Source of the DNA: an uncultured bacterium
Lineage (GTDB): Bacteria > Fidelibacterota > UBA2242
Direction: 5' to 3'
Length of the DNA stretch: 64,000 bases
Assembly (NCBI GenBank): GCA_964441235.1
Contig: CAYTUQ010000002.1
Coordinates: forward strand, 96,110-160,109
The notes beneath the pieces were generated by a model. It ran no database searches, had not been told where the DNA came from, and was given only the letters and a program-made list of their open reading frames with translations. Made by a program: the position numbers and the translations under genes. This document shows positions 3,203-63,438 of the stretch, piece by piece (positions within the stretch are counted from its first letter, which is position 1; each line of letters starts with the position of its first letter).

Positions 3203-3398
3203 TTTTGCCGGGACAATTTACAGATTTTGATACGCTAAATCAAGCGAGGCGAGAGCAAATATTTTGCCATAATAAGAAACAAGACCAAATTAGCTTCTCC
3301 ACATTAAGGAACAAAACCAATTTAGCTCCGCGGAAATTGGTTTGTTGATTCTATTCTATTTATAGAAAAAATTTATTATTTCAGAGCAGTAAAATATA

Positions 3399-3529
3399 TT
3401 AACCCTACTACGTAACTTTACCTAGACGGGTCTCCGAAAAATTTAATGTACCAAATGTAGTATTTACAATTGCTAGTTGGTACTATATCAGGCATTTGCC
3501 TGATTTACTAAATGACGTTGTAGGGTTAA
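3399..3529. repeat. 131-nt element closed by a 15-bp inverted repeat (TTAACCCTACTACGT / ACGTTGTAGGGTTAA, 1 mismatch) with two internal hairpins; MITE or structured RNA
   Basis: Read directly. Internal hairpins are GTACCAA..TTGGTAC and ATCAGGCA-TT-TGCCTGAT. No second copy seen in the window. Confidence 0.5.
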
Positions 3530-3544
3530 CATCTATTAGCTTTT

Positions 3545-3608
3545 ACCCCGTGAAATATTTCGTTCATCCAACTACTTATTATTTTTTTATTCTGTTATTT
3601 CACGGGGT
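3545..3608. other. Long hairpin: perfect 13-bp stem ACCCCGTGAAATA / TATTTCACGGGGT with a 38-nt AT-rich loop
   Basis: Read directly. Lies in the 620-bp gap between the ABC permease stop and gatC. No U-tract, so it is not an obvious terminator. Confidence 0.5.
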
Positions 3609-3826
3609 GAATTTGCGGTTGAACAAATCATTATCTAAAACCAATTTGATGGTCTCGTAAAAAGTAACAATAAAAATTGCTAAAATAAAATAAACTCTTG
3701 TAATTATATGGTTTATGAGCATTCAATGTAAATACTTGTTTTTTTAAATAATTCTTAGCGTCTTGGCGTCTTTGCGGTGACTTTTTACGATTGTATCCAA
3801 TTTAGTTTCACAGAAATTGGTTTGTT

Positions 3827-5050
3827 TTATTCATACCTTAGTGCTTCAATAGGATCAAGCCGAGCCGCTTTCATAGCGGGATAAACACCAAAAACCACCC
3901 CTATGAGCATCGAAAAACCTATCCCCAGAAAAATAGACCACACAGGTATTGTTGGTGGTAATTTTAATGCTGCACTGATAAGAAGTCCGACAACAACACC
4001 TAAAACAACACCGATTATTCCACCAAATATACAGATGCCTACTGATTCGGTCATAAATTGGAATAATATGTGTTTTCGCTTTGCACCAATAGCTTTTCTT
4101 ATTCCAATTTCTCTGGTACGCTCAGTCACGGAAACCAACATAATGTTCATAATACCAATTCCGCCTACCAGCAGCGATATTCCGCATATTACAACTGCAG
4201 CAATAAAGACAAATCCAGTTAAATTTTTCAGGGTATCCATAATAGAATCTTGAGTAACGATCTCAAAGTCGTTTTCTACACCGGGTGGTACCTTTCTTGC
4301 AATACGCAAAGCGGATATAGTTTGATCAATCGCCTCTGGAATTTGCTCAGCGCTCTTTGCTTTAATACCAATATTGATAGTTCGCTTTGTACCAAATACT
4401 TTCGTAAATGTAGAATAAGGAATTGAGACAAGGTTATCCTGACTACTTCCAAATATTTTGCCTTTTTTATCAATTACACCGACGACCTCAAATCTAACAT
4501 TTCCTATCTTTATTTCCTCGCCAACAGGATAAGAAAAAGGAAATAATTTCTCGACAATATCACTGCCTATAACTGCAACATATCTTTTATGGTATATATC
4601 ATCTTTAGTAAAAAGTCGTCCCTCGCTAATATACCTATCATTCACTTCTGCCCAACTCTCATCACCACCATATATTACGATGTTGGGATTCGTTGACTCT
4701 TCTTTATATTTTATTTGCTTACCCCAAGTATAAAACTCAGGTGAGACAGCATCAACATCCGGCGCAAGAAGTTTTATTTTTTGAGCTTGCTCTACTGTCA
4801 GGTTCTTACGATTTCTATACTTTCTATCTAAATGACCGAGCTGTACCGCAGGATATTTCTGAACCCAGAAGACATTTCCTCCAACAGCAGATAGAGTTTG
4901 CGTCATATGCCTTTCAAGAGCATTAATAATTGACATCATCCCTATCACTGCCATCACTCCGATAACAATACCGAGAGTTGTCAGAAATGTCCGAAGTTTA
5001 TTATTCCTAACTGTTTGAAAAGCGAGTCTTAATCCTTCTTCAAAATTCAT
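3827..5050 (-). CDS. ABC transporter permease, FtsX/MacB family
   Basis: 407 aa. N-terminal TM, large periplasmic MacB-like domain, C-terminal FtsX-type 3-TM bundle (RTREIGIRKAIGAKR). Paralog of the upstream permease. Confidence 0.9.
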   Translation of the reverse strand: MNFEEGLRLAFQTVRNNKLRTFLTTLGIVIGVMAVIGMMSIINALERHMTQTLSAVGGNVFWVQKYPAVQLGHLDRKYRNRKNLTVEQAQKIKLLAPDVDAVSPEFYTWGKQIKYKEESTNPNIVIYGGDESWAEVNDRYISEGRLFTKDDIYHKRYVAVIGSDIVEKLFPFSYPVGEEIKIGNVRFEVVGVIDKKGKIFGSSQDNLVSIPYSTFTKVFGTKRTINIGIKAKSAEQIPEAIDQTISALRIARKVPPGVENDFEIVTQDSIMDTLKNLTGFVFIAAVVICGISLLVGGIGIMNIMLVSVTERTREIGIRKAIGAKRKHILFQFMTESVGICIFGGIIGVVLGVVVGLLISAALKLPPTIPVWSIFLGIGFSMLIGVVFGVYPAMKAARLDPIEALRYE

Positions 5051-5178
5051 AATTGTTCAATTTAAATTTTTATAAAGTCGAAACTTGAGTCAAGTCCGCT
5101 AAAAAAATTCTTTCATAATTCACAGACCTTTCAAACGTACTTAACTTAAGTTTCAAAATCCTACTCCAATTATTATTT

Positions 5179-6408
5179 TTATTCATAATGCAAACATTCT
5201 ATCGGATCGAGTTTGGCTGCTTTGCGAGCAGGATAAATTCCAAAAAATAGACCAACAAAAGTAGAGAAACCCAGACCCATAAAAATTGACCATAAAGGTA
5301 CCGAAGATGGGAAAGGCGTAACTTTATCGATTAAAATTGAAAATAAAAAACTAAGTAGTATCGCTATTAAACCTCCAACACTGCAAATAATTATTGACTC
5401 GATAATAAATTGAAATGTGATTATAGACCGTTTTGCACCCAAAGCTTTACGTATTCCAATTTCCTTCCTTCTTTCAGCAACTGAAACCAGCATAATGTTC
5501 ATAATCCCTATACCACCAACCAGCAGAGAAAGCACACCAATTCCTATAGCAGCAGTATATAAACCACCAGTTAGTTTATTGTACATTTCAGTAAGCGCTT
5601 CTTGTTGATTAATAGAAAAATTGTCTTCCTCGTGAGGCTTTAATTTTCTTGATATCCTCATTAAAAAACGGAGTTCATCTATAGCTGACTCTATCATAGA
5701 GGGATTTTCAACTTTCACCGTTATTTGTATACTTCTGTGGAATCCAAAATTTTTGAATATAGACCCAATCGGAACATATACCTCCGAATCAAGGCTATGT
5801 CCAAATATACTGCCCCTTTTTTCCATTACACCAATAACAGTATATGGAATAGTACCAATTCTAATCTTTTCACCAATAGGATATCGGTTCTTGAAAAGCT
5901 TATCTTTAATTTCGTAGCCAATCACTACATTATTTTTATTTTTTGAGATTTCCAAAGGAGTAAAATATCGTCCATCTTCAATGTTATAACCTTCAATTTT
6001 TTCTGTTTCCATTGTTACGCCAGTAACACCGATTGCAGTAAGTGAATTTTCCCTATATTTTATACTCTGCCTTGTACCTGTTGCCGGTGCAATTGCTTCA
6101 GCATTTTTCATATATTCTTGAACATACTTAGCGTCTTTCATAGTAATATTCGGACGGTTACGATATTTAAACCAATCGTTTCCAGCAACCCAGGGATATT
6201 TCTGTACGTATATTGTATTACTTCCAATATTTGCGATTTGACTGGCGAAACCTTCATTCAGTCCCTCAATAATCGAGGCCACGGAGACAACTGTTAGTAC
6301 ACCTATAATTATCCCAAGCGTGGTGAGTATTGCTCTCATCTTGTTTTGAGCAAGAGCACGAAGAGCAATAAGTACACTTTCCCAGAGTTTAATAAGAAAT
6401 GAAATCAA
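5179..6408 (-). CDS. ABC transporter permease, FtsX/MacB family
   Basis: 409 aa with the same architecture ([15 protein letters not shown]). Start overlaps the ATPase stop by 4 nt. Confidence 0.9.
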
Positions 6409-7097
6409 TTCTCTTCCAACTGTAAATCATTAGCAATATTTCCATCAAGAATATGGACTATACGATCTGCCCGTTCAGCAATGTATTTCTCATGAGTAAC
6501 AACAATTATTGTATTTCCTGCTCTGTTGAGTTTACTAAAAATACTCATGATTTCTTCACCTGTTTTTGAATCAAGGTTACCAGTGGGTTCATCAGCCAAA
6601 ATGAGTGAAGGATTGTTAACCAGCGCTCTTGCAATAGCTACACGCTGGCGCTGTCCACCTGAGAGTTCATTGGGACGGTGATTCTTTCTGTCAGAAAGTC
6701 CTACTTTATCCAATGCTTCTTCAGCAATCACTTTTCGTTTTGATGCGTGAACTCCACTGTAAATCAAAGGAAGTTCCACATTATGCAAAGCACTTGCCCT
6801 GGGAAGAAGATTAAATGTCTGAAAAACAAATCCGATTTTCCTATTTCTTATCTCAGCAAGGTGATCATCATTCATCTCATGAACGGGGGTATCTTCCAGC
6901 TTATAGATACCGGAAGTCGGCGAATCCAAACAGCCAATAATATTCATCAGAGTAGATTTTCCAGACCCTGATGGTCCCATTATAGAAATGTACTCATTGC
7001 GTTGGATTTGGAGGTCCACTCCCCTTAGAGCATGAACCTCCACAGCACCAACTTGATATGTTTTAACAATTTTTTTAAGATTGATAAGAGTATCCAT
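6405..7097 (-). CDS. ABC transporter ATP-binding protein (MacB/LolD-type)
   Basis: 230 aa. Walker [10 protein letters not shown], signature LSGGQRQR, Walker B LILADEPT. Confidence 0.95.
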
Positions 7098-7855
7098 TAT
7101 CCACCAAAATAGACATTAAAGCGGTAAATCACATTTGAAAAATCAATATCCGGAACACCACTTACTCTTTTCCCTTCCATCTTCCAACCGTTCTGATCAA
7201 CTTTACAATATATGTATCCCACATTAACCCCTACTGCACACCAGCGAAAAATATTATAGCGAAAACCAATTGTGGGTAAAAGAGTAATAAAATCACTTGT
7301 CAGCTTTGTCTGGTAATCATTAAAATTCGTGAAAGAAGTATCTGAAGTAACTGAATAACCATTTTCCCATATTTCACCCCATCTTACAGGACCACTCCAT
7401 TTTACTATATCTAATGTGGTACTTCCACCGCCAATCATTGTACCAATATAAAATTCTGAATTATTAAATGGGTGAAATGCTTTCTCAATAGTAAAACCTC
7501 CAAATCCCAAAGAAAGAGTAATTTCTTTAGCATTTGCTCCTGATACATCTGGCTGCCCGTTAGAAACAACAAACCCGCCAGCACCTAAACCTCCTAAACG
7601 AATACTTTTGCCAACATATCCCCAGCCGCCGCCACCGGTGAGGAATATATTATCACTAAAACCTTCTAAGTCAATACCTATCAACTCATTGTTAATACCG
7701 TCTATCTGTAACGGTAACATATAGACATCAAATCCGCCAGCGCCGCCTCTAAAAAAGCCGTGTTTGTGTTTACTTCTCCAGCTATCACCTTTATCAGAAG
7801 CTAATAAAGAACTTCCAATCAATAAAACAAGCAAAATTGATAAAACTTTTTTCAT
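7097..7855 (-). CDS. Secreted Gly-rich hypothetical protein, candidate small outer-membrane beta-barrel (paralog A)
   Basis: 252 aa. Signal peptide [19 protein letters not shown]. GGxGG tracts and alternating-hydrophobic strands. C-terminus ..[11 protein letters not shown]. Stop overlaps the ATPase start by 1 nt. Confidence 0.75.
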
Positions 7856-7979
7856 TTTGCACCCCTTTCGTTTTTATTCATAATGTTAAAACTTAATCAA
7901 AGACCTTTAAGAGTGTATAATTCACTTATACTACCATCGTATATTTCCAAATACACTTTTCAAATAAAAAAACGGCATA

Positions 7980-9005
7980 TTATACACCGAAATAGACATT
8001 AAAACGGTAGATTACATGTGAAAAATCAATGTCTGGAACGCCATATACTCTCTTGCCTTCCATCTCCCAGCCATTCTGATCAACTTTACAATACATGTAT
8101 CCTATATTGACCCCTACTGCACACCAGCGAAAAATATTGTAGCGAAAACCGATAGTGGGTAAAAGAGTAATAAAATCACTTTCTATTTTTGTCTGGTAAT
8201 CATTAAAATTTGTAAAAGAAGTATCTGAAGAGACTGAATAACCGTTGTCCCATATTTCTCTCCATTTTGCCGGCCCACTCCATTTCACTATGTTTAATTT
8301 AGCGCTCCCACGACCTATCATTGTACCGATGTAAAATTCTGATTTATTAAATGGGTGAAATGCTTTCTCAATAGTAAAACCTCCAAATCCTAAAGAGAGT
8401 TTAATTTCCTTAGCATTTGCTCCCGAAATTTCAGGCTTTCCACTAGAAACAACCGAGCCACCACCACCTAAACCTCCTAAACGGATACCATTGCCGACAT
8501 ATCCCCAGCCGCCACCACCGGAAAGGAACATATTATCATCAAAGCCTTTTAAGCCAATTCCTATCAATTCATTGTTAATACCATCTATCTGTAATGGTAA
8601 CATATAGGCATCCCAGCCGCCAGCACCCCCTTTAAAATAGCCGCGTTTTTTCTTACTTTCATCTTCTTTGCCTTTTTCATCTTGCAGACTGTTATAATAC
8701 TCTTCCTTATATGAATCAGACATTTTTGATAAAAAGTCCCATAAAGTCATGCCTTGCTCTTCTTCATCTTTATTCCACTCTCTATCTTCTTCCCACTCCT
8801 CTTCCTCTTTTTCATCTGCCAACAAAGTATCTTGATCTTGTTCTTTAATAATTTCAGATTCAATATCCTCACCGGTAACTGTTAGTGTATCTTGTTCTAA
8901 TTGTGCAAACGACAATTCAGAAGAATGAATATCGTTATTTTTATCACTTGCGAACAAAAATACCCCGAACATTAAAATCAATATTAATGAAAAGATTCGT
9001 TTCAT
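7980..9005 (-). CDS. Secreted Gly-rich hypothetical protein with an acidic N-terminal extension (paralog B)
   Basis: 341 aa. The C-terminal ~215 aa are close to identical to 7097..7855 by eye. An extra ~110-aa D/E-rich segment follows the signal peptide. Start overlaps the MFP stop by 4 nt. Confidence 0.75.
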   Translation of the reverse strand: MKRIFSLILILMFGVFLFASDKNNDIHSSELSFAQLEQDTLTVTGEDIESEIIKEQDQDTLLADEKEEEEWEEDREWNKDEEEQGMTLWDFLSKMSDSYKEEYYNSLQDEKGKEDESKKKRGYFKGGAGGWDAYMLPLQIDGINNELIGIGLKGFDDNMFLSGGGGWGYVGNGIRLGGLGGGGSVVSSGKPEISGANAKEIKLSLGFGGFTIEKAFHPFNKSEFYIGTMIGRGSAKLNIVKWSGPAKWREIWDNGYSVSSDTSFTNFNDYQTKIESDFITLLPTIGFRYNIFRWCAVGVNIGYMYCKVDQNGWEMEGKRVYGVPDIDFSHVIYRFNVYFGV

Positions 9006-13854: not shown

Positions 13855-14431
13855 GTTTTCTTCTCATCAAAACCGAGTGAATTTATAAAAGAGGTTGGTT
13901 AATTGCAAAGAGAGTAAATTATTCAAAACCCGTTTTAAGCGTATCGAAGACCTCCACGAGGAAGCCAAACGGGTTTGTTTCGAGAGACGCTAATACAGAA
14001 CCATTATTTGAACTCTCAGTTGCATTGACTTTGATACAAATATAACTAAAATTAGGGTTGACTTTGTTACAGAAAAGAATAAATGAATATATAAGCAGAT
14101 GGATAGGGTAGGGAGTTAATATCCAAAATCCTTTTAATATTTGCCATGCTCAATCGAAAAAGGGTTTGTTTGGATAGGGTTAAGTATTTAAGGAGATTGC
14201 AAATATTCACTATTGTCTGCCCGATTAGTTAGGTGGGCAATTCCTCGGTTAAACCTGTCAGGTTTCGTCCGATCGAAGATTCTCCGAAGGAGTCCTACAT
14301 CGAGATATTTTCGACACATATTTACTTTTGTATAATTTTTTATATCTCCCTTATAGTTAATAGAACTGCTACACCTACTGCCTGGAATACTTCGATAGCG
14401 AATGAACTAATTGCTCTATTGTACCTCTAGT

Positions 14432-14729
14432 AGCGTTTCCAAAATAACTTAGCAATTGGGGGAAATCACAAATCACAAACTACAAATTACAAACAATTTC
14501 AAAATCTAAAATTAAAATGAACAAAACTATACCAGAACTATTTTGAATTTCTATATTTTGTTATTGTCTCGTAGAGATTCTCCGATAGGAGTCCTGCGTG
14601 ACCTTTGGAAGAACTTTTTTGATATTTGGTGCTTGTCTCGTCTCGAAGAGATCCCGCTGGGAAAGAGACCCCCTCGGAGAAATTTGGATTTTAGTAAACA
14701 AATAATTGCAAAGATAATTAGGAAACTAT
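14432..14729 (+). repeat. Composite repeat family A, copy 1 (~298 bp); inverted homolog of 36105..36371
   Basis: Long collinear match to the reverse complement of 36105..36371 (..AAAATAACTTAGCAATT.., ..CAAAATCT[A/C]AAATTAAAATGAAC.., ..GATATTTGGTGCTTGTCTCGTCTCGAAGAGATCCCGCTGGGAAAGAGACCCCCTCGG..). The two copies differ by whole-module swaps. Confidence 0.85.
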
Positions 14730-15177
14730 CTACTAACCTGTAATTTATCTATCCTGCCTATAGTGGCTACTACTTTCTGTTTTACTCTCTCCTTCTCTTT
14801 TCGATTCGCATATCTGGAGGTATTTATATTTGTCCTACAGATCCGTACGGAACTGACTTCCTGATGCGTGTAAACCCCGCTATAAGCGGTGAAAACATTT
14901 GCTCTCCTTAAATTAGTCATCACAAATTTAACAATTAGTGTGACAGAAATCAATCTCTAATATCAAATATTGTGACACTACATTTCTTACCTTTTTCAGG
15001 GGTAAATACCTCTAAGTCATTGATTTTACTGAACAAAATATTTTGAAACTAATCTCAACTTAGAAGAAAATTTTGAATTATTATTCTGCAACAGCCTGTG
15101 AATCGGGACGAGCAGGTCACTGACTCTGTGGCTGAATAGTTACAATAAAAGAAGATATTTATTTTTCAAATGTTTAT

Positions 15178-15330
15178 ATGAAAGTGCCTAAAGTGTCTAA
15201 AGTGAAAAGTGCCTGATGAACAATGACCAATTAACAATAAACAATCAACAATCAACAATATACAATTTATGTATTTTAAAAATATCAACTTTAATGCTTC
15301 GTTGTGGCCGAAAGGCTATGGGAGTTATTT
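15178..15330 (+). repeat. Composite repeat family B, copy 1 (~150 bp); inverted homolog of 49118..49340
   Basis: ATGAAAGTGCCTAAAGTGTCTAAAGTG..GCCTGATGAACAATGACCAATTAACAATAAACAATCA[A/G]CAATCAACAATATACAATTTATGTATTTTAAAAATATCAACTT..CTTCGTTGTGGCCGAAAGGC[T/C]ATGGGAGTTATT is shared with the reverse complement of 49118..49340. Confidence 0.85.
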
Positions 15331-17034: not shown

Positions 17035-17494
17035 ATCAACCTCACTAATTTTTAAAAGTCAAAGTTATTTAAAATTACATTTATTATCAAGCAGTGAATT
17101 TTCCCAATTAATTTTCCATATCATTGCTACCAAAATGTAAGTTATAATATTTCTCTTAAAAAAAAAGGAAATGAACGGCTACTTCTCAACTTAACACAAG
17201 TCCTAAAGAGAACACCACATCTCAACCGTAAAACTTATTCCTAACCTTCCTAAGGGCTTTTCCAAAGGTCACAGTGAACTCTGATACGTAGGAGAACTCC
17301 TACGGAGAAAGCCTTCAGAAGGTTTCCACTGTTAAGAAAATCTTTTTTCTTTCCTAAAAGTTGTTGCAATTTTCACATGAATTTGAAAGATGAGAGAAAA
17401 TCAAACCCGTTTTTTCCCTTCATCAAAGAGGTCTCCTCAAGATACTCCGAGCCGAAGGCTTCCGATAGGAAAACGGGTTATATGAGAATGAAAA

Positions 17495-20359: not shown

Positions 20360-20581
20360 CAGTACCCCGTCTCGACAGAGATCCCGTTGGGAAAGCTCCG
20401 CTTCGGATTAAAATTTTTGACAAAGTTACTAAAATGCGAAGCAGAGCTTCGCGGTACAGTTAAGTCCGAAGCTCATCTTCGGAAACATCCTATCATTACG
20501 CCGATGCAACGTTTCGGATAAAGGTTTCCGAGATAAAGTGATCAGAATGCGAAGCGGAGCTTCGCGGTACAAAGAGGAATT

Positions 20582-24681: not shown

Positions 24682-24846
24682 TCAATTACCAGGAATAAAC
24701 CTCCGATAAACCGGAGCAGACCGTTTGCTAATGGTATCCCTCTGGGAAAAACGGTTGTAATGCGGAGAGGGAGTTTCAATTAAAACTTTCGCAGATTTCA
24801 GATTTTCAAAAGAATATTCAAACCAACTTTTAGTTTCATCTTTCAT
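24682..24846 (-). pseudogene. HEPN-domain toxin remnant: only the first ~30 codons are HEPN-like, the rest is hairpin-repeat sequence
   Basis: Own translation: MKDETKSWFEYSFENLKSAKVLIETPSPHYN|RFSQRDTISKRSAPVYRRFIPGN*. The start overlaps the MNT stop by 11 nt, the usual MNT-HEPN coupling. No RxxxxH motif. The 3' part coincides with modules CTCCGATAAACCGGAG and ACCGTTTG..AAAACGGT. Confidence 0.65.
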
Positions 24847-34975: not shown

Positions 34976-35139
34976 TTTGAATTAAAGTTACGTTGTGAGC
35001 TAACTCGTAATGGATATATTAATACCTTGTTTCAACTATTCATCTATTGTCAGTTAATTCCATGGAGTTTATTGGTTAATTTTAATTGAAAAAATTTACT
35101 TATTCTCTAATATTATCCATTTTTTTATTTTTGTTAATT

Positions 35140-35690: not shown

Positions 35691-35833
35691 TATTTTACCC
35701 TTTCATATAACTAAATAAATGTAATGCTATGTATTGCTAATAGCAACACAATTTTAATATTAAAATAGATTTACACAGGTCAATAAGATATTTTTTCTGT
35801 TAAAATGTGGCTTCTCTTTGAGCTTTATTAAGT

Positions 35834-36104
35834 CTATGGCAAATAATGCTGAATTAGAAAAATGAATTTAAGGACCTGGCACAAGGTTCATAAAAGTTCC
35901 GTTACGAGCTCACTCGTAACGGTGTTTCAAACCTGCTACAAGTTAGCTCGTGCCAGAACTAAAAAAGGTTGTATGTAGCTGCGATCCGGCAGTTGCCGGA
36001 CCGCATTTGAACCGAAAGGTTCAATAAAAGGTAAGAGTTTGTATTATCAGTAGTTTTTCTGTTTTCTCTGAAAACAATATCGGACACGACTGTCCGATAC
36101 TACT
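35834..36104 (+). repeat. Composite repeat family C, copy 2
   Basis: See copy 1. Its 3' end is interrupted by the family A element. Confidence 0.9.
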
Positions 36105-36371
36105 ATGTCGTTTCCTACTTATCGCTGCAATTATTTATTTATTAAATTCCAAATTTCCCCGAGGGGGTCTCTTTCCCAGCGGGATCTCTTCGAGACGAGA
36201 CAAGCACCAAATATCAAGTAAATTCCAATAAACAAATATAGAAATTCAAAATAGTTTAGTTCATTTTAATTTGAGATTTTGAAATTATTTGTAAATTATC
36301 CCAAGGGGACTCATTCGGAGGAAATTGTAATTTGGGATTTTCTTTAATTGCTAAGTTATTTTAGAAACGCT
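36105..36371 (-). mobile_element. Family A element, copy 2 (267 bp): MITE-like non-autonomous insertion flanked by 8-bp direct duplication ATACTACT
   Basis: Filled site: CCGATACTACT|ATGTCGTTTCC...AGAAACGCT|ATACTACTATTGAATTAAAG. The paralogous uninterrupted site at 34968 reads CCGATACTACCTTTGAATTAAAG. Short terminal inverted repeat GTCGTTTC / GAAACGC. No ORF. Confidence 0.65.
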
Positions 36372-36466
36372 ATACTACTATTGAATTAAAGCTCCGCTAC
36401 GAGCTCGCTTGCAACGGAGTACCATCCAAATATTCTGGTATGAGTGAGCTCATACCATAACTAAAA

Positions 36467-40579: not shown

Positions 40580-40979
40580 AAAACCCCTCTGAAAACCAAT
40601 ATATACTTTTTACAATTTCCCATGAAAAAATTCAAATACATTATTGAGTTCACTTATCCCAGGGGGCTCTCTGATGAGAAAAAACAGGAAACCGCCAATG
40701 CTCCTCCCAACGGGATCCCTACGGGGAAAAGAGTCTATGGAAACTCCAATCCCAAAGGGATCTCTATGAGATAAGCTCTAATTGTTTTTGTCGAGGACAT
40801 CCGCCAGTTGGCGGATATTGAGCTTACAGGTATTATTTTTACATTTTTTGACTGCCCGTCCCGATTCATCGGAAGCAGGCGAGTACATTTCGTGTCTTTC
40901 TGTAGTAGACTAATTATTAATTTGACTATTCACTACATTATTTATTAGAATTGGTAGTGTTTCGATTGATTCTACCATT

Positions 40980-43436: not shown

Positions 43437-43528
43437 GAAGAGAGAATAGACCATGAATGACGCCTGTCTGTGTCCGTAGGCTGCCGTACAGGCAGGCGAA
43501 TTATCGCAAATATAAATAGACAGAATCA

Positions 43529-44449
43529 ATGATTTCTAAAAAAACATTCAATCTATATCCAAACCTGCTCATTATTATCTCCATTCTGTCTTTAGCAACT
43601 TGCGGGAAATGGGGATGGGAGGATGTTACATCAGACCATGAGCCAGTTTTTAATGTATTTGCTCTTATATCACTTGATACGACAATACAAAGTTTCGTAC
43701 GTGTACATCAGACACTTGACCTACAGAGCCCCGAAGAAGAGATTATCTGCAAAGACACAATCTGGTATGGAGATGGTCCTTATGACTTTAGGTTGCGTGA
43801 TTTATGGGAATCACAATATCTTGTGAAAGATGCTACTGTAACAATTTCCGATGGAATAAAAGATTATGTCTTTTCTTATGTTAATTTCGAACATGATTAT
43901 TATTTGGATGAGGAAACGATATACTTAGATACGCTTGGCCAATTCCATCCCGAACCCAATACTAAATATTTTTTAAATGTCTCAACGCCTGATGGTAAAA
44001 AATTAACAGGTGAAGTGACTACTCCACCTATTCCGGTTATATACAGTGAACAGATTCCAGATACCGTATATATCCGAAAAACTTTTACCGTTACCTGGAA
44101 GCCATTAGAAACAGTTCACTCATTAATTCGAACAAGTTCTATTCTATACTGGATATGTGGTTCTGAACAGCGAGATGTCATGGAGCCTGGAGATTCGAGC
44201 TGGACATCATCAATTGTAGATTGTCATTATTATGAAAATGAAAGTAGTGAGCCCGATAGTTTAATGATTGAAATGCGCACACTGGATGATAATTATTATG
44301 AGTACTTTTTAAAACATGCCTGGGAGGACGAGTTTGTTTCCTTTCTTCTTGGAGGCGGCGATGCAGGTTTGACAATCGGAATAGAGGGCGGATATGGCGT
44401 CTTTGGGGCAATTGCTGCCGATAGGGTTTACAGGGTGATAGTTCCATAA
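43529..44449 (+). CDS. DUF4249-family lipoprotein (usual partner of this TonB-dependent receptor type)
   Basis: 306 aa. Lipobox-like LSLATCG. C-terminal ..IEGGYGVFGAIAADRV... Sits immediately downstream of the receptor. Confidence 0.7.
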   Translation: MISKKTFNLYPNLLIIISILSLATCGKWGWEDVTSDHEPVFNVFALISLDTTIQSFVRVHQTLDLQSPEEEIICKDTIWYGDGPYDFRLRDLWESQYLVKDATVTISDGIKDYVFSYVNFEHDYYLDEETIYLDTLGQFHPEPNTKYFLNVSTPDGKKLTGEVTTPPIPVIYSEQIPDTVYIRKTFTVTWKPLETVHSLIRTSSILYWICGSEQRDVMEPGDSSWTSSIVDCHYYENESSEPDSLMIEMRTLDDNYYEYFLKHAWEDEFVSFLLGGGDAGLTIGIEGGYGVFGAIAADRVYRVIVP

Positions 44450-44471
44450 GAAGGTTGTTAAGATTACTATG
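44354..44471 (+). repeat. Direct repeat, copy 1 (functional 3' end of the DUF4249 gene plus 22 nt)
   Basis: Homologous to 45651..45768: ..G[AT]TGCAGGTTTGACAATCGG..TAGAGG.CGGATATGGCGTCTT..GGGGCAATTGCTGCC.AT.GGGTTTA.AGGG...AGT...ATAA.AAGGTTGTTAAG.. Confidence 0.85.
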
Positions 44472-44632
44472 GTATTAGGTTATTGTGCTAAAGGCTATTG
44501 GAGAAAGAAATAAGTAATTATGAATTATAAATTTTGAATGATGAATAGCGAATTTTTAAGTAGTAACCTTAAAACAAAATGGATGGTTCTGAACATAATG
44601 TTGCATAAGTATTTTAGAAGAACAGGAGAAGT

Positions 44633-45650: not shown

Positions 45651-45768
45651 GTGGTGATTCAGGTTTGACAATCGGTGTAGAGGACGGATATGGCGTCTTC
45701 AGGGGCAATTGCTGCCAATCGGGTTTAAAGGGCAGTAGTGACATAACAAGGTTGTTAAGTGACTATGT
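45651..45768 (+). repeat. Direct repeat, copy 2 (decayed, frame-broken relic of the DUF4249 3' end)
   Basis: Same alignment as 44354..44471. It has a 1-nt indel (CTTTGGGG vs CTTCAGGGG) and no upstream ORF. It accounts for the first codons of track ORF 45665..45973. Confidence 0.8.
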
Positions 45769-45769
45769 T

Positions 45770-45972
45770 CAGAACTCAGTAAAAACACAAATAAAGTGGA
45801 AAACAATCGCAAATAAAATGCTCGAAGCTGTCATTCTGAACGAGGTACGAGTGAAGAATCTTTATTGGTATTTCGTCAGAGATTCTTCTTCGCTTCGCTT
45901 CATCAGAATGACATTGATAGTAATTTTTATTTGCGATTGTTTTTTAAGATTCATCAAATTTACTGAGTTCTG
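45770..45972. repeat. ~200-bp imperfect palindrome (MITE-like foldback element)
   Basis: CAGAACTCAGTAAA..CAATCGCAAATAAAA..GTCATTCTGA..GAAGAATCT | AGATTCTTC..TCAGAATGAC..TTTTATTTGCGATTG..TTTACTGAGTTCTG. Confidence 0.8.
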
Positions 45973-46346
45973 ATGTTATCTTCAAGCATGAAAGCAAATA
46001 GAATAGATTGAATATCGAACAAGCCTGCCTGCCGTAAGGCATGAGGGCAGAAAATGCCCGAGGCAAAGGATTTGAAGTAAAATTAATCCGTAAGCTGGCG
46101 GATTCAAAAAATATTCGTTCCTACCGAAAGTATCTCTTCGAGACAAACGTCCAGATATTTTCGGGAGAACGAGCAGAAACTCACCCTGTAACTCTTGTTT
46201 CCAAACTCTTTGTATAAAGGTAGATTGTTGCCAACAGATGAAGAGGGAAATCCTCTGGATGGGGTTATAACGTTTTCTTACAGTGATTTCTGATAGACAG
46301 CGCCGGGTTCATGTATTTAATAAAAGATTCGTTAGGGCTTTTTTAT

Positions 46347-46764
46347 TCAAGATGATTTGAGAATTCCAGTTAATTCTTCTGGGTCGTAGGTTCTTATTAA
46401 AGCATGTTTAAAATCTTTAATGTTTCTGGTCGCAATTCCATCAATATGACTCAGATTCGCTGACTCATGTAATACTGCATCTTCAAAATCACTAATTTTA
46501 TGACTGGACGCAGATTTAAATATGGATTCATTTAATTCGGTCAATTCAAAAATATTTATCATGTTTTTAATTAGTTTCTTTGCTTCCCCCTGATCCTTTT
46601 ACTTTGGTAACTAAATAAGCAATAGTTGTTATAGTTGTTGGACAAACATATCCCTCAATATTTCCGCGCTCAACTTCTGATATTAGATAAGTAGCAGCAT
46701 TATGATATGGTTTACGAAGAAGTAACAAATCCAATATTACATTCGTATCAAATAGAATTTTCAT
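46347..46764 (-). pseudogene. vapC: PIN-domain (VapC-like) toxin split by a frameshift in a G5 run (C5 on + strand, 46586..46590)
   Basis: Track ORFs 46567..46764 (MKILFDTNVILD..) and 46347..46562 (..SDFEDAVLHE..IATRNIKDF..) are the two halves of one PIN domain. Removing one G gives a continuous ..KVKGSGEAKKLIKNMINIFEL.. ~137-aa protein. Confidence 0.8.
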
Positions 46765-47003
46765 AAGTACTTGCCTTCAAGGTATTTCTTATAATCCGTT
46801 TCATCAATATTAGAATCTGCGAGAGCACCATATAAAGATTTTACATTTGGTGGTAATTCTATATCTTCAACAAGTTCTTTTTTGGTAAGTATCCTAAAGT
46901 AATCTGCAACCATTTTGGAAAGCGATTTACCCTTTTTATCAGCAACAGATTTTGCCAGGTGTATCAATTCATCTTCCATTCTCAAAGTCAATTTCGTCTG
47001 CAT
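46761..47003 (-). CDS. Antitoxin partner of the PIN toxin (RHH/DUF6364-like)
   Basis: 80 aa. MQTKLTLRMEDELIHLAKSVADKKGKSLSKMVADYF has a ribbon-helix-helix-like N-terminus. 4-nt overlap with the PIN gene. Confidence 0.7.
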   Translation of the reverse strand: MQTKLTLRMEDELIHLAKSVADKKGKSLSKMVADYFRILTKKELVEDIELPPNVKSLYGALADSNIDETDYKKYLEGKYL

Positions 47004-47068
47004 ATTATCTCCTTGTACGTCATACTATCATATATTAATACGTCATATAGATTTATGCAACAACTTTT

Positions 47069-47470
47069 TTATTGTTCCGCAATAACTTCTTTATATGCCA
47101 TAATATTGTCAATTGCATTTTTTAGATTTTTTGAAAAAGACATGTTTTTACCGGAAATTTCCCTGAGTAAAGCTCTCACGGTTTCACGTTTGCTTTTTAA
47201 TTCGTAAGAACAATAATGCTTTTCGACGCTGATTCCTCTTCCTTTTGCATAAGATAAAATATGTTTTTTGGAAATGGAAACCTGAGTAATATCTATATGA
47301 ACAGCGTGAAGCTAAATAGAATCATCAATTGAAAGCTGATATTCATGAAGAAGTTTCGCCATCGTAAGACTGTCGCTTCCACCGGAGACGGCTATAAGAA
47401 TTTTATCGTTAGGTTTAATAAGATTGAATTTCGGATTAAGTTTTATGAATTGCGGTATTAATGAGGACAT
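47069..47470 (-). pseudogene. PP-loop ATPase (TtcA/TilS-like) remnant with an in-frame TAG (47312..47314) and an internal deletion
   Basis: Own translation: MSSLIPQFIKLNPKFNLIKPNDKILIAVSGGSDSLTMAKLLHEYQLSIDDSI*LHAVHIDITQ...RETVRALLREISGKN...AEQ*. The SGGxDS PP-loop is present, but there are only ~133 codons against the 250-450 expected. Confidence 0.6.
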
Positions 47471-47519
47471 TTTTAAATATGGTCAATATTTACCAATGAA
47501 GATATGCTGGGAATAAGGT

Positions 47520-48623
47520 TTATCCTGCCGCTAATTTAAAAGTAATCACATCGCCATCGCGAACTGGATAGGATTTTCCCTCAATATGTACAAAACCCTG
47601 TTCTCTCATCAGCGTCTCTGACTTGATTTTTTCTACGTCATTCCAATGACGAACTTCGGCTTTTATGAATCGCTCTTCGAAACCTGTATGAATGACCGAA
47701 GCTGCTTTATTTGCGGGTGTTCCAGCAGGAACTGTCCATGCCTGGCATATATTAGATTCAACAGTGAAAAAAGTAATTAGCCTTAGAAGTGTATAACCGG
47801 CGGTGATTAATTTATTTAAACCTGCCTCCTGAATGTGCCATTCCTTCATAAGTAGGTCTCGCTCGTCAGATTCCAACTCAGTCAATTCCAGTTCAAGATT
47901 TGCAGAAAGTGTTAGGAACAGGTTTCCTGATTCCATGGCAAGTTTCTCAAAATTTTGCGTTGCATCGGATTTCTTACCTAATGTGGCTTCATCCTCTGAG
48001 ATATTTCCAACAATTAGAACTGGTTTATTTGATAGAAGTGATAATTCTTTTATAAAATATTCTTCTTCAGGATGAGCATGATAACACTTTGCTGACTTCC
48101 CTCTTTGTAGAAGTTCCTTGATTTCTTCTAAAATTGTGAGCTGCTTTTTGAATTTCTCTTCGCCAGCTTTTGCATGCTTAGTGATTTTATGTGTGCGATT
48201 TTCAATAACTTCAAGGTCTTTCAATAAAATTTCTGTTTCGACAATTTCAAAATCCCTTTTGGGGTCTAATGTATCGCTGATGTGTGCAACATTAGGATTA
48301 TTGAAACATCGAACAAGGTGAACAATAGCGTCAACTGCTTGAATGTAACTTAGGAATTGGTTGCCCAGCCCTTCACCGTTTGAAGCTCCTTTTACCAATC
48401 CTGCAATGTCAACAAATTTTAGAGTTGTGGGTATTATCTTTTCCGGTTTGTAGATTTTAGAAAGAATATCAAGCCGTTTGTCAGGCACCTCAACAATCCC
48501 AACATGTGGATCAATTGTGCAAAAGGGGTAACTTTCCATCGGAACTTGAGCATGTGTCAGTGCATTAAAAAGTGTTGATTTACCGACATTAGGCAGTCCT
48601 ACAATTCCACATTTGAATCCCAT
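47520..48623 (-). CDS. ychF: Ribosome-binding ATPase YchF
   Basis: 367 aa. [18 protein letters not shown], ..[10 protein letters not shown].., C-terminal TGS-like ..[14 protein letters not shown].. Confidence 0.95.
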
Positions 48624-48796
48624 AGTTTTGCAAGCACCTATTTTTTGTTTTTAAATTGACATAATGATTCTATCGGAATATAAAAAAAAATTCTCAATTG
48701 ATACAAAGTTTATTTTAATTGGTTTTATTTATACTTGTTCAACTATTGTAAAATATTTATATTTGCATCTGCTTGAGTAATCGAGCGATTGACAAA

Positions 48797-48911
48797 GGAG
48801 CCGTAGTTTCCCGACTGGTCGTGATTAGAGCACTGGCTTGTCCGGCGTAGCGTAGCGAGGACGGATCTGCCTGCCGGAAGTTGTCCCGATGGATATCGGG
48901 ATCGGCTCTGG
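48797..48911 (+). pseudogene. Degenerate tRNA-Asp-like unit carrying hairpin-module insertions in the D-loop, anticodon loop and T-arm
   Basis: GGAGCCGTAGTT[TCCCGACTGGTCGTGA]TTAGAGCACTGGCTTGTC[C..28 nt..]CTGCCGGAAGTTG[TCCCGATGGATATCGGGA]TCGGCTCTGG is collinear with the true tRNA GGAGCTGTAGTT..TTAGAGCACCGGCCTGTCACGCCGGAAGTTGCGGGTTCGAATCCCGTCGGCTCCG. Confidence 0.6.
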
Positions 48912-48949
48912 ATACAAGCGATATTTTTAAAAAGGAATTAAAATTATTT

Positions 48950-49023
48950 GGAGCTGTAGTTCAATTGGTTAGAGCACCGGCCTGTCACGCCGGAAGTTGC
49001 GGGTTCGAATCCCGTCGGCTCCG
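48950..49023 (+). tRNA. tRNA-Asp (anticodon GTC)
   Basis: Manual cloverleaf. Acceptor GGAGCTG/CGGCTCC, D-stem GTTC/GAGC, anticodon stem CCGGC/GCCGG with loop CTGTCAC, T-arm GCGGG-TTCGAAT-CCCGT, discriminator G. 74 nt, no encoded CCA. Confidence 0.95.
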
Positions 49024-49117
49024 CTGAACCTGCCACACCGGAAGCTGTCCCGATGAGTCGGGAAACCGTTGTGATCTTGCTGATGAGGAAGATGACATAG
49101 AAGACTTAGAGAGTATT

Positions 49118-49340
49118 CGTAATAACTCCCATGGCCTTTCGGCCACAACGAAGTATGTCTCAAAGAGATGTCTTTCCATAGGAATCCTTCGTGATCGACA
49201 AAAGTTGATATTTTTAAAATACATAAATTGTATATTGTTGATTGCTGATTGTTTATTGTTAATTGGTCATTGTTCATCAGGCACTTTCAACTTTAGGCAC
49301 TTTCAACTTTAGGTACTTTAGACACTTTAGGCACTTTCAT
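49118..49340 (-). repeat. Composite repeat family B, copy 2 (~220 bp) with an extra 49-bp hairpin module and an expanded GCACTTTCAACTTTAG tandem
   Basis: Reverse complement is collinear with 15178..15330. The insertion TTGTCGATCACGAAGGATTCCTATGGAAAGACATCTCTTTGAGACATA replaces TAATG of copy 1. Confidence 0.85.
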
Positions 49341-49619
49341 ATAAAACAGTTGCTAATTTTATAATATCCCAGGCAATATCATTGTCAATACATAGAAAAT
49401 TTCCCACATATTAGCCTTATCTCTTAGATATCTCGAGATAGCGTGGAATTATTTCTACCTATTTTCTATATTTGATAATAAATATGGGGAAACTGCTTTT
49501 GATTTTCTATTTCTGAAGTATATGTTAACACAAAATAAAAATTACCATTAAAATAAATCTCAATCAAATAAAAATCTAATAAATATAACAGTTCTCTTTT
49601 CTCCTAAAAACAATCTGAT

Positions 49620-54943: not shown

Positions 54944-55638
54944 AACTACTCTTGTGTTTTATTATAATTTAATTGTAAGATTAATTTGAGAAAATTAGAA
55001 CTGGTAAACTTCGTATATGTTTCTACGTTTATTATTTCTACTGTCAAAAGTTTTGTTAACAAGGAATTTATGTTGAAATTCAAAATAATCATTCAGTCTA
55101 TAAAATCATGACCTTAATATATTAAAAAATGCCTGCTAAATCAATAAAAATCTGAGGGAAAAATGTAATACGTCGGTTACGGGTTAGATCAGATAATTTC
55201 GCCCGACTACTTCGGAATAACTATGGGAAAATCCAAGAATGTTGACATAGTTTTTCCTTTCAATCGGAAGGCGGGCGACCGTCAGGCAATTTACTTGTCT
55301 GGCGCATGACGAGATTGCATAGACTTACCGGCAATACGATATAACCGAATTCGTTAAAATTAATCCTGTTTTCCTATTACTTTTACTTTCTTCCTTTAGG
55401 GTTTGTCATGCTTCGACGAGCTCAGCATGACATGACGAGCATTTTTTTGTCACCCTGATCTACTCGCTCCGAAAGGTCACGAAGGATTCTCCGATAGGAG
55501 TCCGTTGTGACCTACGGAGAGTCCCTATCGGGAAAGGGTGATAACCTTCCTCCACATCAGTTAACCGCCAAATTCTTAATTTCTTTTCTTCCAAAGTATA
55601 CGAAAGAAATGCAAAACGTAATAATTCTTGGGTTTATC

Positions 55639-58089: not shown

Positions 58090-58090
58090 A

Positions 58091-61059: not shown

Positions 61060-61145
61060 TTCACTCTCCCTTTCTATTCATATTTTTTCTATCTATCCTC
61101 ACATTCATTTTCCCTGCTTGCTAAACTTTACAACCTTCGCAAAGT

Positions 61146-62345: not shown

Positions 62346-62362
62346 AATTCTATTTCAAACTA

Positions 62363-62587
62363 CTAAAATACCTGCTCAACAGCTTTCATCTCAGGAATAA
62401 ATTCCTTTAATTTTCTTTCAATACCCATTCTAAGAGTAATAGTACTCATCGGACAGCCGCTGCAAGCACCTGTTAATTTCACTTTTACGATACCATCATC
62501 TGCTACTTCAACTAACTCCACATCACCGCCATCTGCCTGGAGCATAGGACGAATTTCGTCAAGAATTTTTTCAACTTTTTCTTTCAT
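62363..62587 (-). CDS. NifU-like (Nfu C-terminal domain) Fe-S cluster carrier
   Basis: 74 aa. ..[32 protein letters not shown]. Confidence 0.88.
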
Positions 62588-62592
62588 CTTAT

Positions 62593-63033
62593 TTACCTTC
62601 CAACTTTATTATTTTTTTCACGACATTCTTTACATATTCCTTTGAAATATCCATGTACTTCCTCAATTTCATTGCCATTAATTTGAGTTATTTCCCTATC
62701 GCAAAAGGGACATTTCACCTCAATATCAATTATTTTTCCACACTTTCTACACAAAAAATGATGATGACTTTTTATATTAATATCATATCTAACTTCTGTA
62801 CCGGTAATTGTTACGGCATGGATCAACCCCTTTTCAAGAAATAGATTCAATGTATTATAAATTGTAGTTTTTGACATTGTTGGTATTCTTTTAGAAATAT
62901 TTTCATAAATTATTTCAGCAGTTGGGTGATTCAGATTTTTCTCAAGATATTCAAGAATGCACAATCTTTGATAAGTAGGTTTTACCTCTTTTTCTTCCAA
63001 CTTATTTTTAATATGTTTCATATTTGTAATCAT
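62593..63033 (-). CDS. perR: Fur-family regulator, most likely peroxide regulator PerR (start may be ATG 63021)
   Basis: 146 aa. Winged helix ..QRLCILEYL.., HHHF, two CxxC pairs. Heads an operon of rbr/fprA/dfx genes. Confidence 0.8.
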
Positions 63034-63038
63034 TACAA
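63024..63038. promoter_or_regulatory. Perfect 7-1-7 palindrome TTGTAATcATTACAA: candidate PerR/Fur box (autoregulation)
   Basis: Read directly. Overlaps the perR translation start and lies just downstream of the putative -10. Resembles the PerR box TTATAATnATTATAA with one symmetric change per half-site. Confidence 0.55.
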
Positions 63039-63042
63039 AATT

Positions 63043-63071
63043 AATATAACTACAATTTATTTAATTGTCAA
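63043..63071 (-). promoter_or_regulatory. Putative promoter of the perR operon: TTGACA - 17 nt - TATATT (also contains TAATTTTG, an FCB-type TAnnTTTG -7 element)
   Basis: Minus strand reads TTGACAATTAAATAAATTGTAGTTATATTAATTTTG. Implies a very short or absent leader. Confidence 0.5.
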
Positions 63072-63438
63072 GACTTTTTTATTTCATCATGAAATATTTT
63101 TTGAATCAATAATTTTTAAATGTACAGTTTCTATTTCCGTACTTCAAATGTTGTTTACTTCAGTGTCAGGAGTGAGCTCCTGACACAACGGGACAAATAA
63201 TCTCCAATCCATATTCCGTTAGGAGCTTACTCCTAAAGATTCCTACCTTCTCTGAAAATCCGCAAACTGACAGGCTACGGAGCACCTGCCCGACATGATT
63301 GCCGATCCCTACGGATCCGTATGGACAGGCAGGCGGGCAGCCCCGTAGCGAGTAATCTCCAATCCTACCTCTATTGGTAACCGAATCCTTTGGTACTTCC
63401 TTTAAAAAAATAAAGCTCTTTTCGCGTCTTTTTGCAGG

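Follow-up and report, generated by a model that had tools for sequence, protein, structure and literature searches.

The GC clusters of yeast mitochondrial genomes (GC42 and GC18; Wu & Hao 2015) are GC-rich palindromes of 42 and 18 nt that reside in AT-rich spacers and vary in presence or absence and in copy number (PMC4478555). These clusters merge and are shuffled, hundreds of them share an identical 13-nt 5' end with differing downstream parts, and their mobilising mechanism is unresolved, an AG target duplication being putative (PMC4478555). Here we describe short GC-rich palindromic modules in the intergenic spacers of a 64-kb stretch (hereafter, the window; contig CAYTUQ010000002.1) of a metagenome-derived Marinimicrobia genome of sediment. 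The window contains a 13-nt head (GTCTC-N3-GAGAT) with varied second hairpins as well as 44-nt and 18-nt units, and GC clusters are the closest behavioural match to this system. However, they belong to an organelle, whereas the modules belong to a free-living bacterium; the sequences are unrelated, and no target duplication accompanies the events in the window. The likeness is one of behaviour, not of homology. The modules are probably miniature palindromic repeats that are non-autonomous, fuse with one another into mosaics and have spread at the DNA level in one clade of sediment Marinimicrobia. They are best read as several families of non-coding, GC-rich palindromes of 11–62 nt, together with a few larger composites resembling miniature inverted-repeat transposable elements (MITEs).

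Among bacterial repeats, repetitive extragenic palindromes (REPs) and their mosaics (the bacterial interspersed mosaic elements, or BIMEs, of E. coli and the GTAG- and CGTC-tagged REPs; Di Nocera et al. 2013) are extragenic imperfect palindromes of 20–45 nt, with several families per genome, complementary stem variants and mosaic arrangements (PMC3733652), and REP doublets forming hairpins (REPINs) represent a regular inverted-dimer organization (PMC3116915). In the window, the M1 elements (44 nt), the 18-nt palindrome and others described below agree with REPs in size and in their extragenic location, mostly downstream of genes, with 2–6 copies per family in ∼76 kb of the genome; the units likewise belong to multiple families, show complementary stem changes and form mosaics. 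Unlike REPs, they carry no consistent unpaired GTAG or CGTC tag and do not form regular REPIN dimers, many are only 11–18 nt long and nested in each other's loops, and no REP-associated tyrosine transposase (RAYT) is encoded in the window or in the related loci examined. GTAG/CTAC is enriched in the spacers (67 sites versus 42.6 ± 6.1 expected), whereas CGTC is not (24 versus 29). A GTAG-tagged REP was nevertheless rejected, as only 10 of the 67 sites adjoin a stem, mostly as part of it, and the equivalent head position reads GTAG, GAAG, AAAG, ATAG or ACAG. An earlier first-pass annotation of this DNA was thus right that the modules do not behave as classic REPs.

Caldithrix abyssi carries an 18-nt, REP-like intergenic repeat (aAACCGTTgaAACGGTTt), a single family of 38 exact copies that avoids gene-upstream regions (PMC5317091). 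The window has outer stems of the form AAACC(C)GTTT...AAACGG(G)TTT (at 13925, 17403 and 24720) that are similar to the arms of this repeat, and the phylum of Caldithrix is a related one of the same FCB (Fibrobacteres-Chlorobi-Bacteroidetes) superphylum, but the loop of the Caldithrix repeat is 2 nt in length, whereas the loops in the window are 27–57 nt and contain inner hairpins, and many families coexist here. The small dispersed repeats (SDRs) of cyanobacteria, reportedly described by Elhai et al. in 2008, are said to be 21–27 nt long, to be thought mobile, to reside inside heptamer tandem repeats and inside each other, and to have no known transposase. The nesting seen in the window and a 21-nt unit within a heptamer array recall what is said of these repeats, but the phylum is different and the sequences are unrelated. 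Neisseria mosaics (NIME/dRS3 and Correia) are also assembled from short repeat units, and dRS3 corresponds to CGTC-1 REPs (PMC3733652).

In total, ∼76 kb of the source genome (including the window) and ∼55 kb from relatives were examined. Exact protein matches located the window on contigs of JGI and Logan metagenome assemblies, one of them 162 kb in length. The nearest named homologues are from Candidatus Marinimicrobia metagenome-assembled genomes, the closest CTP synthase among species-representative genomes is 62% identical, and the proteins include types with a type IX secretion system (T9SS) tail and CarboxypepD_reg-TonB types (Pfam scan). A gene map comprising open reading frames (ORFs) of at least 100 aa and small genes backed by Pfam or called-gene tables left 10.2 kb of spacer in 34 regions, which was compared with 53 kb of coding sequence (CDS). 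The G+C content is 36.6% in coding DNA and 33.5% in spacers, the GC-richness being confined to the modules and not a property of intergenic DNA overall.

Perfect GC-rich hairpins (a perfect stem of at least 5 bp with at least 4 G:C pairs and a loop of 3–8 nt) numbered 23 in the spacers, versus 1.4 ± 1.1 in dinucleotide shuffles (maximum 5), a 16-fold excess, whereas coding DNA contained 9 versus 8.4 ± 2.8 expected, that is, the chance level. The 8-mers GAGATCCC and CCTACGGA each occur four times in spacers and never in the CDS, and CCGATAGG occurs five times and once, respectively. BLAST matches of at least 28 bits between different spacers numbered 15 versus 0.8 ± 1.1 in shuffles, a comparison for which the coding control is not clean because of paralogous genes. 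Hairpins were found in 14 spacers, with up to 5–8 in a single spacer, and one of the two divergent (promoter-only) spacers lacks modules. Each word is present in 2–6 copies in the window, and the strongest similarity comes from three composite pairs. These data bear out the first-pass annotation, which had described hairpin strings in at least 14 intergenic regions and a vocabulary concentrated in intergenic DNA; all nine word classes that it listed were recovered, 0–4 nt from the positions given there. Two of the stretches that it had treated as intergenic (34710–36466 and 45974–47519, 1.5–1.8 kb each) do bear hairpins but also hold RelB/YafQ genes, a frameshifted PIN toxin and a truncated PP-loop ATPase, and GNRA loops, which it had listed among the frequent types, are a small minority.

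An alternative, ordinary terminators with a chance likeness to one another, would agree with the low copy number per word, and any bacterium should have approximately one hairpin for each of its transcription units. It is extremely improbable, given as many as 5–8 hairpins in a spacer, the 16-fold excess over shuffles, the inter-spacer matches, the recurrence of the words in other genomes and the paucity of T-runs. Intrinsic (Rho-independent) terminators were also rejected as an identity for the modules: only ∼4 of the 23 hairpins (31967, 24701 and 34949/36078) have, on one strand or the other, six or more T within the 10 nt that follow.

The vocabulary includes exact words such as GATTCTCCGATAGGAGTCC (at 14576 and 55485) and GAGATCCCGYTGGGAAAG (at 14648, 20378 and, on the minus strand, 36171). 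Six copies of the 13-nt head, GTCTC-N3/4-GAGAT, are present in the window, all of them in spacers, and related contigs have seven more; because the head is shared but is joined to varying second hairpins, composites differ by one unit. With reference to the gene map, two heads are in sense orientation, three are antisense and one is in a convergent spacer. The M1 unit is a three-part palindrome of ∼44 nt (GTCGATCGAAGA / GGTCACGAAGGA, then TTCTCC-GAWA-GGAG, then ...TCGAC / GTGACC) with six recognizable copies, and an 18-nt palindrome (ATCCGCCAGYTGGCGGAT) is present in four copies over four sequences. The outer stems AAACC(C)GTTT...AAACGG(G)TTT enclose inner hairpins, a GAG-TGAG-CTC apex sits on three unrelated outer stems (63163, 35899 and 36436), and palindromes of the type CAGGCAGGCG constitute a further class of unit. 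As previously noted for this DNA, modules occur in both orientations and nested.

Mini-palindromes, arranged in tandem with an 11-nt period (Tandem Repeats Finder, TRF), show a marked polarity: pyrimidine-first units number 28 versus 4.6 ± 2.1 expected, and purine-first units number 10 versus 4.6, with coding DNA at chance. The pyrimidine-first units include TCCC-N3-GGGA (seven copies), TCTC-N3-GAGA (six) and CTCC-N3/4-GGAG (four). Because pyrimidine-first units exceed purine-first ones, the mini-palindromes are sequence-specific and not purely thermodynamic. Such short, symmetric and specific sequences might be operators, nucleoid-protein sites or protected restriction-modification sites (TCCC-N3-GGGA, or junctions centred on RGATCY). 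RGATCY is avoided 4-fold in coding DNA (13 versus 53 ± 7 expected; GATC is avoided also) and is at expectation in spacers (8 versus 8.4), where most sites lie in modules (GAGATCCC, GGGATCCC) as judged by inspection, without tabulation; this pattern suggests a restriction system of that specificity, with sites surviving only in the repeats. However, whole-unit insertion polymorphism, nesting and presence in dead genes and MITE-like repeats are unlike a regulon, one divergent spacer lacks modules, and no candidate protein was identified, so that binding or protected sites are a very unlikely explanation of the modules.

Three composites (X, Y and Z) are each duplicated within the window (self-BLAST). 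Copy 1 of X (14427–14726, plus strand) is ∼300 nt in length and MITE-like, and contains a heptamer array, a 44-nt insert (insert A) and a W2 module (14636–14690); it is 85–93% identical to copy 2 (36110–36372, minus strand), which lacks insert A and contains a 21-nt insert (CTCCGAATGAGTCCCCTTGGG, 36300–36320). X has no coding capacity. The imperfect terminal inverted repeats of copy 1 are ∼30 nt (score 34 versus a shuffle maximum of 24), whereas those of copy 2 score 28 versus a shuffle maximum of 32; a seed-based tool detected no terminal inverted repeats. Copy 1 of Y (15177–15324, minus strand) carries a hairpin (GGCC-GAAA-GGCT) and heptamer and 9-mer arrays, and lies directly after the TAA stop codon of a tetratricopeptide repeat (TPR) gene; copy 2 (49126–49343, plus strand) is 96% identical to it, with a further insert (insert B) and extra tandem units. 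A partial likeness to MITEs, in size, inverted termini and absence of coding capacity, is seen in X only: no inverted termini were found in Y, or in the small modules beyond their own palindromy, these modules are well below MITE size, no target duplication was found at the window events, and no transposase of a parent insertion sequence was found in the sequence examined.

The two copies of X and the two copies of Y provide filled and empty sites for elements of the M1 family. Insert A (14566–14610, plus strand; GTCTC-GTA-GAGAT / TCTCC-GATA-GGAGT / CCTGCGTGACC...) is missing from X copy 2, and its exact core also occurs at 55485. Insert B (49157–49200, plus strand; 44 nt; GTCTC-AAA-GAGAT / GTCTTTCC-ATA-GGAATCC / TTCGTGATCGACA) is missing from Y copy 1. 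The two inserts are approximately two-thirds identical and differ by paired changes in the arms (CTCC/GGAG versus TTCC/GGAA). Since the sequences of X and Y are unrelated, the M1 element is independent of both. The 21-nt unit sits within the heptamer array of X copy 2 only. The alignments thus confirm that composites differ by gain or loss of whole modules.

Comparison with sister genomes, which the first-pass annotation had proposed, revealed further filled and empty sites. In contig L097 (JAHIOG010000120.1), codons Y83 and N84 of a gmd fragment (tblastn, E = 1e-22) are separated by a 62-nt block, across which the frame shifts; the block has the termini of insert B and one additional TCCC-TGC-GGGA unit. 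In L086 and L087, whose TPR proteins are 87 and 83% identical to that of the window, the Y site is empty (...GTAA|ACATTTG...): the TPR stop codon is joined directly to the conserved 3' sequence that lies 148 nt further on in the window, so that Y (148 nt) is an insertion exactly after the stop codon. The nitroreductase-DAO spacer of L085 (∼88% nucleotide identity) differs from that of the window by indels of 16, 35 and ∼60 nt, and an 18-nt palindrome (TCCGCCAGCTGGCGGA) in L085 lies within the loop of a GCGAAGC...GCTTCGC hairpin, just upstream of a start codon. Neither the M1 inserts A and B nor the 21-nt unit nor the block in gmd is bordered by a target-site duplication. The flanks of the events are AT-rich (...TAT|AA-like), and both Y copies are flanked by ATAA...TATAA, which is possibly part of the element.

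These structures might instead have arisen in place, by template switching or slippage at quasi-palindromes, 11-nt tandem duplication and gene conversion without any transposition. The 11-nt tandem period (TRF, 40705–40725), the association with tandem heptamer arrays and the short direct repeats found at the borders of indels (the loss of 33 nt between copies of TTGACTTTG in L082 and an ACCCCG...ACCCCG duplication in L085) agree with such a by-product of mutation. Intra-strand template switching yields compensatory changes in the arms, and such changes, previously claimed for at least one stem, are present in CTCC-GATA-GGAG versus TTCC-ATA-GGAA and in TTGAATT/GATTCAA versus TTGAACC/GGTTCAA. 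These compensatory changes are reported descriptively, since alignment by MAFFT put the 5' arms of the 26-nt units out of register and the copies of M1 were too heterogeneous. However, the same sequences of 35–62 nt, complete with their termini and non-palindromic flanks, recur at unrelated loci in different genomes, and foreign sequence interrupts the gmd fragment cleanly from one codon to the next; in-place mutation is therefore a rather unlikely origin for the system.

The same words are present at non-orthologous sites in L085, L086, L087, L097 and L098 (CAZTCA010000155.1), and a 35-nt module is near-identical in three of these contigs from other assemblies (L085, L097 and L098). L097 and L098 were obtained by a pattern scan of species-representative genomes; a metagenome scan matched one contig, an exact 26-mer scan of a genome collection gave no match, and neither did a scan of viral contigs. 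L098, which carries the 35-nt module (CCCCGTCTCAAAGAGATCCCTTTGGGATAGCGA) at 1137–1162, is binned as 'uncultured Pseudomonadota' and has a G+C content of 42.5%; the binning may be wrong, or else the module occurs across lineages. L097 contains two fragments of gmd (GDP-mannose 4,6-dehydratase; 299–590 and 1726–1803), each abutting W2-type modules and interleaved with RelE-like and MNT/HepT toxin-antitoxin cassettes, and resembles a scrapyard of cassettes, broken genes and repeats.

L090, whose GltX is 82% identical, also carries GC-rich hairpin strings, with largely different words. The M48-ruvB spacer has 480 nt of modules in the window versus ∼90 nt of other hairpins in L090. Module turnover appears to be fast, because the module part of this spacer has been replaced, while the adjacent 235 nt (ruvB-adjacent and promoter-proximal) are ∼90% conserved. 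No hairpin excess was found in L096, from a more distant member of the Marinimicrobia (TPR protein 52% identical, 41% G+C, 6% spacer), where spacers of 63 and 107 nt correspond to 495 and 342 nt of modules in L086. The expansion appears to be lineage-specific, because the spacers of L096 are compact and show no such excess.

Two kinds of structure are mixed in the observed strings. The long nested palindromes (40–100 nt) are far more stable than shuffles (z from −2.0 to −4.6), whereas strings of 11-nt mini-palindromes with 4-bp arms are no better than shuffles (14560–14700, z = +0.8). This stability, the location of most modules downstream of genes in co-directional spacers, the compensatory arm differences and a hairpin 10 nt past a stop codon (36436–36457) would be consistent with RNA-level elements (3'-untranslated region stabilizers, terminators lacking a U-tract, processing sites or small-RNA precursors) that are under selection for RNA structure and spread by duplication of useful modules. 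In addition, the first ∼75 nt of the composite at 20365 are 58–60/60 identical to L085, like the best coding windows, while the flanking CDSs are ∼88–95% identical. Nevertheless, the only match in Rfam 15, at gathering score and even at E ≤ 1, was tRNA-Asp, so that a known RNA family was rejected; T-runs are few, as described above, and the heads are divided between sense and antisense. Transition mismatches in the stems are G:U-compatible in nine sense and six antisense cases, without strand bias (an uninformative test). Modules are also present within the MITE-like composite X, within a tRNA copy that appears decayed and within the gmd fragment, the module-rich part of the orthologous M48-ruvB spacer is unconserved, the mini-palindrome strings are not unusually stable, and stability does not predict the pyrimidine-first asymmetry. 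An RNA-level role as the primary explanation, which the first-pass annotation had offered as an alternative, is accordingly doubtful. Some copies may have been co-opted, but a function in RNA structure does not explain the system.

The explanation that we favour remains that of mobile miniature repeats at the DNA level. Units have been found in AT-rich spacer, in heptamer arrays, within other repeats, in a hairpin loop and, in the related contig L097, between neighbouring codons of the gmd fragment. The modules would be copied in trans by an activity whose gene lies elsewhere in the genome; a single-strand (HUH/Y1-type) transposase is the leading guess, because target duplications are absent and the elements are hairpins. 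Repeated insertion beside or into earlier copies, and recombination between copies, would then produce the beads-on-a-string mosaics. The modules might gather in the gene-distal, 3' part of spacers because insertion is tolerated there, and consequences for the stability or the ends of mRNAs, if there are any, would be secondary. In its essentials, the first-pass annotation's view of a REP/BIME- or MITE-like system is upheld by dispersal, both orientations, nesting, gain or loss of whole units and sharing among genomes at non-orthologous sites. Its modular recombination pattern is likewise observed, although the novelty attached to it is weakened because yeast mitochondrial GC clusters merge and shuffle in the same manner behind a shared 13-nt head (PMC4478555).

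Several observations weigh against mobile repeats. As the earlier annotation had stated for RAYT and Y1 enzymes, no transposase was found; more broadly, none of any kind was detected in the window (Pfam, gene tables and ORF translations of 46300–47520) or in ∼50 kb of related loci, and the mobilizing activity is thus wholly inferred. The copy number per family is low (2–6) in the sequence examined, and a common target motif is not definable from three events. For most filled/empty pairs, precise deletion of palindromes could give the same pictures, but deletion would not explain the same element in three unrelated contexts. The strong conservation of the composite at 20365 would fit a function for that copy. 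There is also no sign of ongoing activity, because contigs of the same population from other samples (JGI and Logan assemblies) are identical, nine of ten at 100% and the remaining one, L081, at 99.99% without gaps. The sole indel polymorphism in the population is the 33-nt deletion between the TTGACTTTG direct repeats, at ∼14028–14062 of the window (contig L082, Ga0307431_1001759).

More speculatively, the system may be a bacterial counterpart of mitochondrial GC clusters, in which palindromic units of 11–62 nt would be copied with neither a target duplication nor a conventional transposase encoded by the element. Single-stranded DNA and hairpin loops would be the preferred targets, including the loops of palindromes and three loops or arms of a tRNA gene copy. 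A host HUH enzyme, capture of reverse transcripts and template-switch copying are candidate mechanisms, and the pyrimidine-first polarity and RGATCY-bearing junctions would be its signature. We put this forward tentatively, as a possibility that is less than likely. The phylum, the lack of a GTAG tag, the very small polar units and the nesting in loops are new here, whereas the category itself is already known.

Other module-bearing regions illustrate the range of combinations. At 55467–55533, a three-tier nested M1 palindrome (CTCCG/GGTCAC/GA(TT)CTCC-GATA-GGAGTC/GTGACC/CGGAG) is followed by TCCC-TATC-GGGA (−38.5 kcal/mol, z = −4.6); the Logan contig L093 terminates at 55484, one base short of the M1 core, as expected if the core is multi-copy. 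Another M1-family copy (14267–14317; GTCCGATCGAAGA-TTCTCC-GAA-GGAGTCC...TCGAGAT..TCGACAC) is 96% identical over 25 nt to L087:1580–1604, a non-orthologous site. The string between the nitroreductase and DAO genes (20365–20571, plus strand) consists of a W2 double mini-palindrome, a long-range pair (CTCCGCTTCGG...CGAAGCAGAG), GCGAAGC-AGA-GCTTCGC (twice) and TCCGAAG-CTCAT-CTTCGGA, and has a paralogous copy at L086:6127–6225. At 40647–40816 (z = −3.5), three W2-like pairs of 11-nt mini-palindromes form a long hairpin (40712–40764), accompanied by the 18-nt palindrome ATCCGCCAGTTGGCGGAT (40799–40816); the module matches L086:204–241 at 89%.

The outer stem AAACCCGTTT...AAACGGGTTT surrounds inner hairpin material at 13925–13977 (z = −2.0). 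The same stem at 17403–17479 (z = −2.9), 15 nt 5' of the start codon of a peptidase S66 gene, encloses GAGG-TCT-CCTC, GCC-GAA-GGC and TTCC-GATA-GGAA. At 24698–24757, CTCCG-ATAAAC-CGGAG is followed by ACCGTTTG...AAACGGT enclosing TCCC-TCT-GGGA, and the same word pair occurs at L086:4246. The palindrome CGCCTGTCTGT...ACAGGCAGGCG (43461–43498, z = −3.2) is 90% identical over 39 nt to L097:601–639. The region 46019–46144 contains GCCTGCCTGCC... hairpins, a decayed 18-nt palindrome (46086–46103) and a GTCTCGAAGAGAT head (46132–46144, minus strand), and the region 63163–63349 (z = −4.2) contains GTGTCAGGAG-TGAG-CTCCTGACAC (63163–63186), TTAGGAG-CTTA-CTCCTAA and a 76-nt nested palindrome (63274–63349). 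The hairpin at 36436–36457 is TGGTATGAG-TGAG-CTCATACCA, and the stop codon preceding it is that of an aminotransferase gene. Between 3314 and 3820 lie AAACCAATTT-N10-AAATTGGTTT (3314–3343), ATCAGGC-ATTT-GCCTGAT (3487–3504) and CCAATTT-N10-AAATTGG (3797–3820).

AT-rich tandem heptamers (AAATCAC, AACAATA, AATTATG and ATTGTTG) are present in spacers and in composites X and Y (14463–14493, 15219–15266, 44516–44546 and 49234–49274), and 9-mer arrays (AAAGTGCCT) are present at 15181–15204 and 49290–49337. The heptamer arrays recall the heptamer repeats of heterocystous cyanobacteria.

Composite Z is present as copy 1 (34696–34974, plus strand), which contains five hairpins and lies directly upstream of, and overlaps the start of, the gene at 32526–34709, and as copy 2 (35824–36103, plus strand), which is 96% identical to copy 1 over 280 nt. 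These 280-nt direct repeats flank a RelB/YafQ cassette (35140–35690). Within Z there is, in addition, a diverged duplicate of ∼100 nt from the start of the downstream gene for a T9SS-tailed protein (34608–34679 versus 34834–34911), with compensatory changes in its TTGAAYY-GNAA-RRTTCAA hairpin. Despite the neighbouring toxin-antitoxin cassettes, integron attC sites were rejected, since no R''(RYYYAAC)/R'(GTTRRRY) box pairs 40–150 nt apart were found in the window and seven related loci (a test of box patterns, not of a covariance model). An origin of the 1.47-kb spacer from pseudogene remnants was also rejected, since the genes located after the TPR gene in relatives had no match by tblastn.

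The tRNA-Asp gene (48950–49024) is preceded by a full-length copy and followed by a 3' fragment. In the upstream copy (48796–48912, plus strand), the D-loop, the anticodon loop (after GTC) and the T-arm are replaced or expanded by hairpins, including TCCCGAT-GGAT-ATCGGGA; the acceptor stem still pairs, but the copy was not called by ARAGORN (fold z = +0.26). The 3' fragment (49030–49075, plus strand) has TCCCGA-TGAG-TCGGGA in place of the T-arm, nearly the same substitute as in the upstream copy. The tRNA-Asp-like copy may be a decayed duplicate colonized by modules or a tRNA-derived repeat.

Elsewhere in the window, a PIN-domain toxin gene (46347–46764) is frameshifted into ORFs of 65 and 71 aa beside an antitoxin-like ORF, and the segment 47312–47470 encodes a fragment of a PP-loop ATPase that comprises the N-terminus, with an SGGSDS motif; both are pseudogenes. 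Two adjacent genes of no assigned function, for proteins of 252 and 341 aa, are 85% identical to each other over 680 nt (7096–7775 and 7979–8658), which indicates a tandem paralogous duplication. Approximately 105 nt at the 3' end of a DUF4249 gene (44357–44462) are repeated at 45653–45759 with 85–87% identity, across the end of a PD40 beta-propeller gene and the start of the ORF at 45665–45973, suggesting a shared C-terminal segment or a partial duplication. Mechanically called ORFs of 50–102 aa overlap module-rich DNA (14233–14953, 40622–40774 and 48969–49277), one of them also overlapping the tRNA-Asp gene; almost certainly these ORFs are not real genes, and annotation could mistake them for such.

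These data document a burst of miniature palindromic repeats that is specific to one lineage, in a phylum for which nearly all knowledge comes from metagenomes. The modules swell spacers from ∼60–100 nt to 300–1500 nt, can interrupt coding sequence, as in the gmd fragment of a related contig, and apparently break short-read assemblies. In practice, they may serve as strain markers, and the spurious ORFs call for caution in annotation. The merge-and-shuffle behaviour of mitochondrial GC clusters would thereby be extended to a bacterium that is free-living. The movement of elements of this size is an unsolved problem in cyanobacterial SDRs, in GC clusters and in REP-like repeats that lack a RAYT, and a genome with several active-looking families and clean filled and empty sites should provide useful material for studying it.

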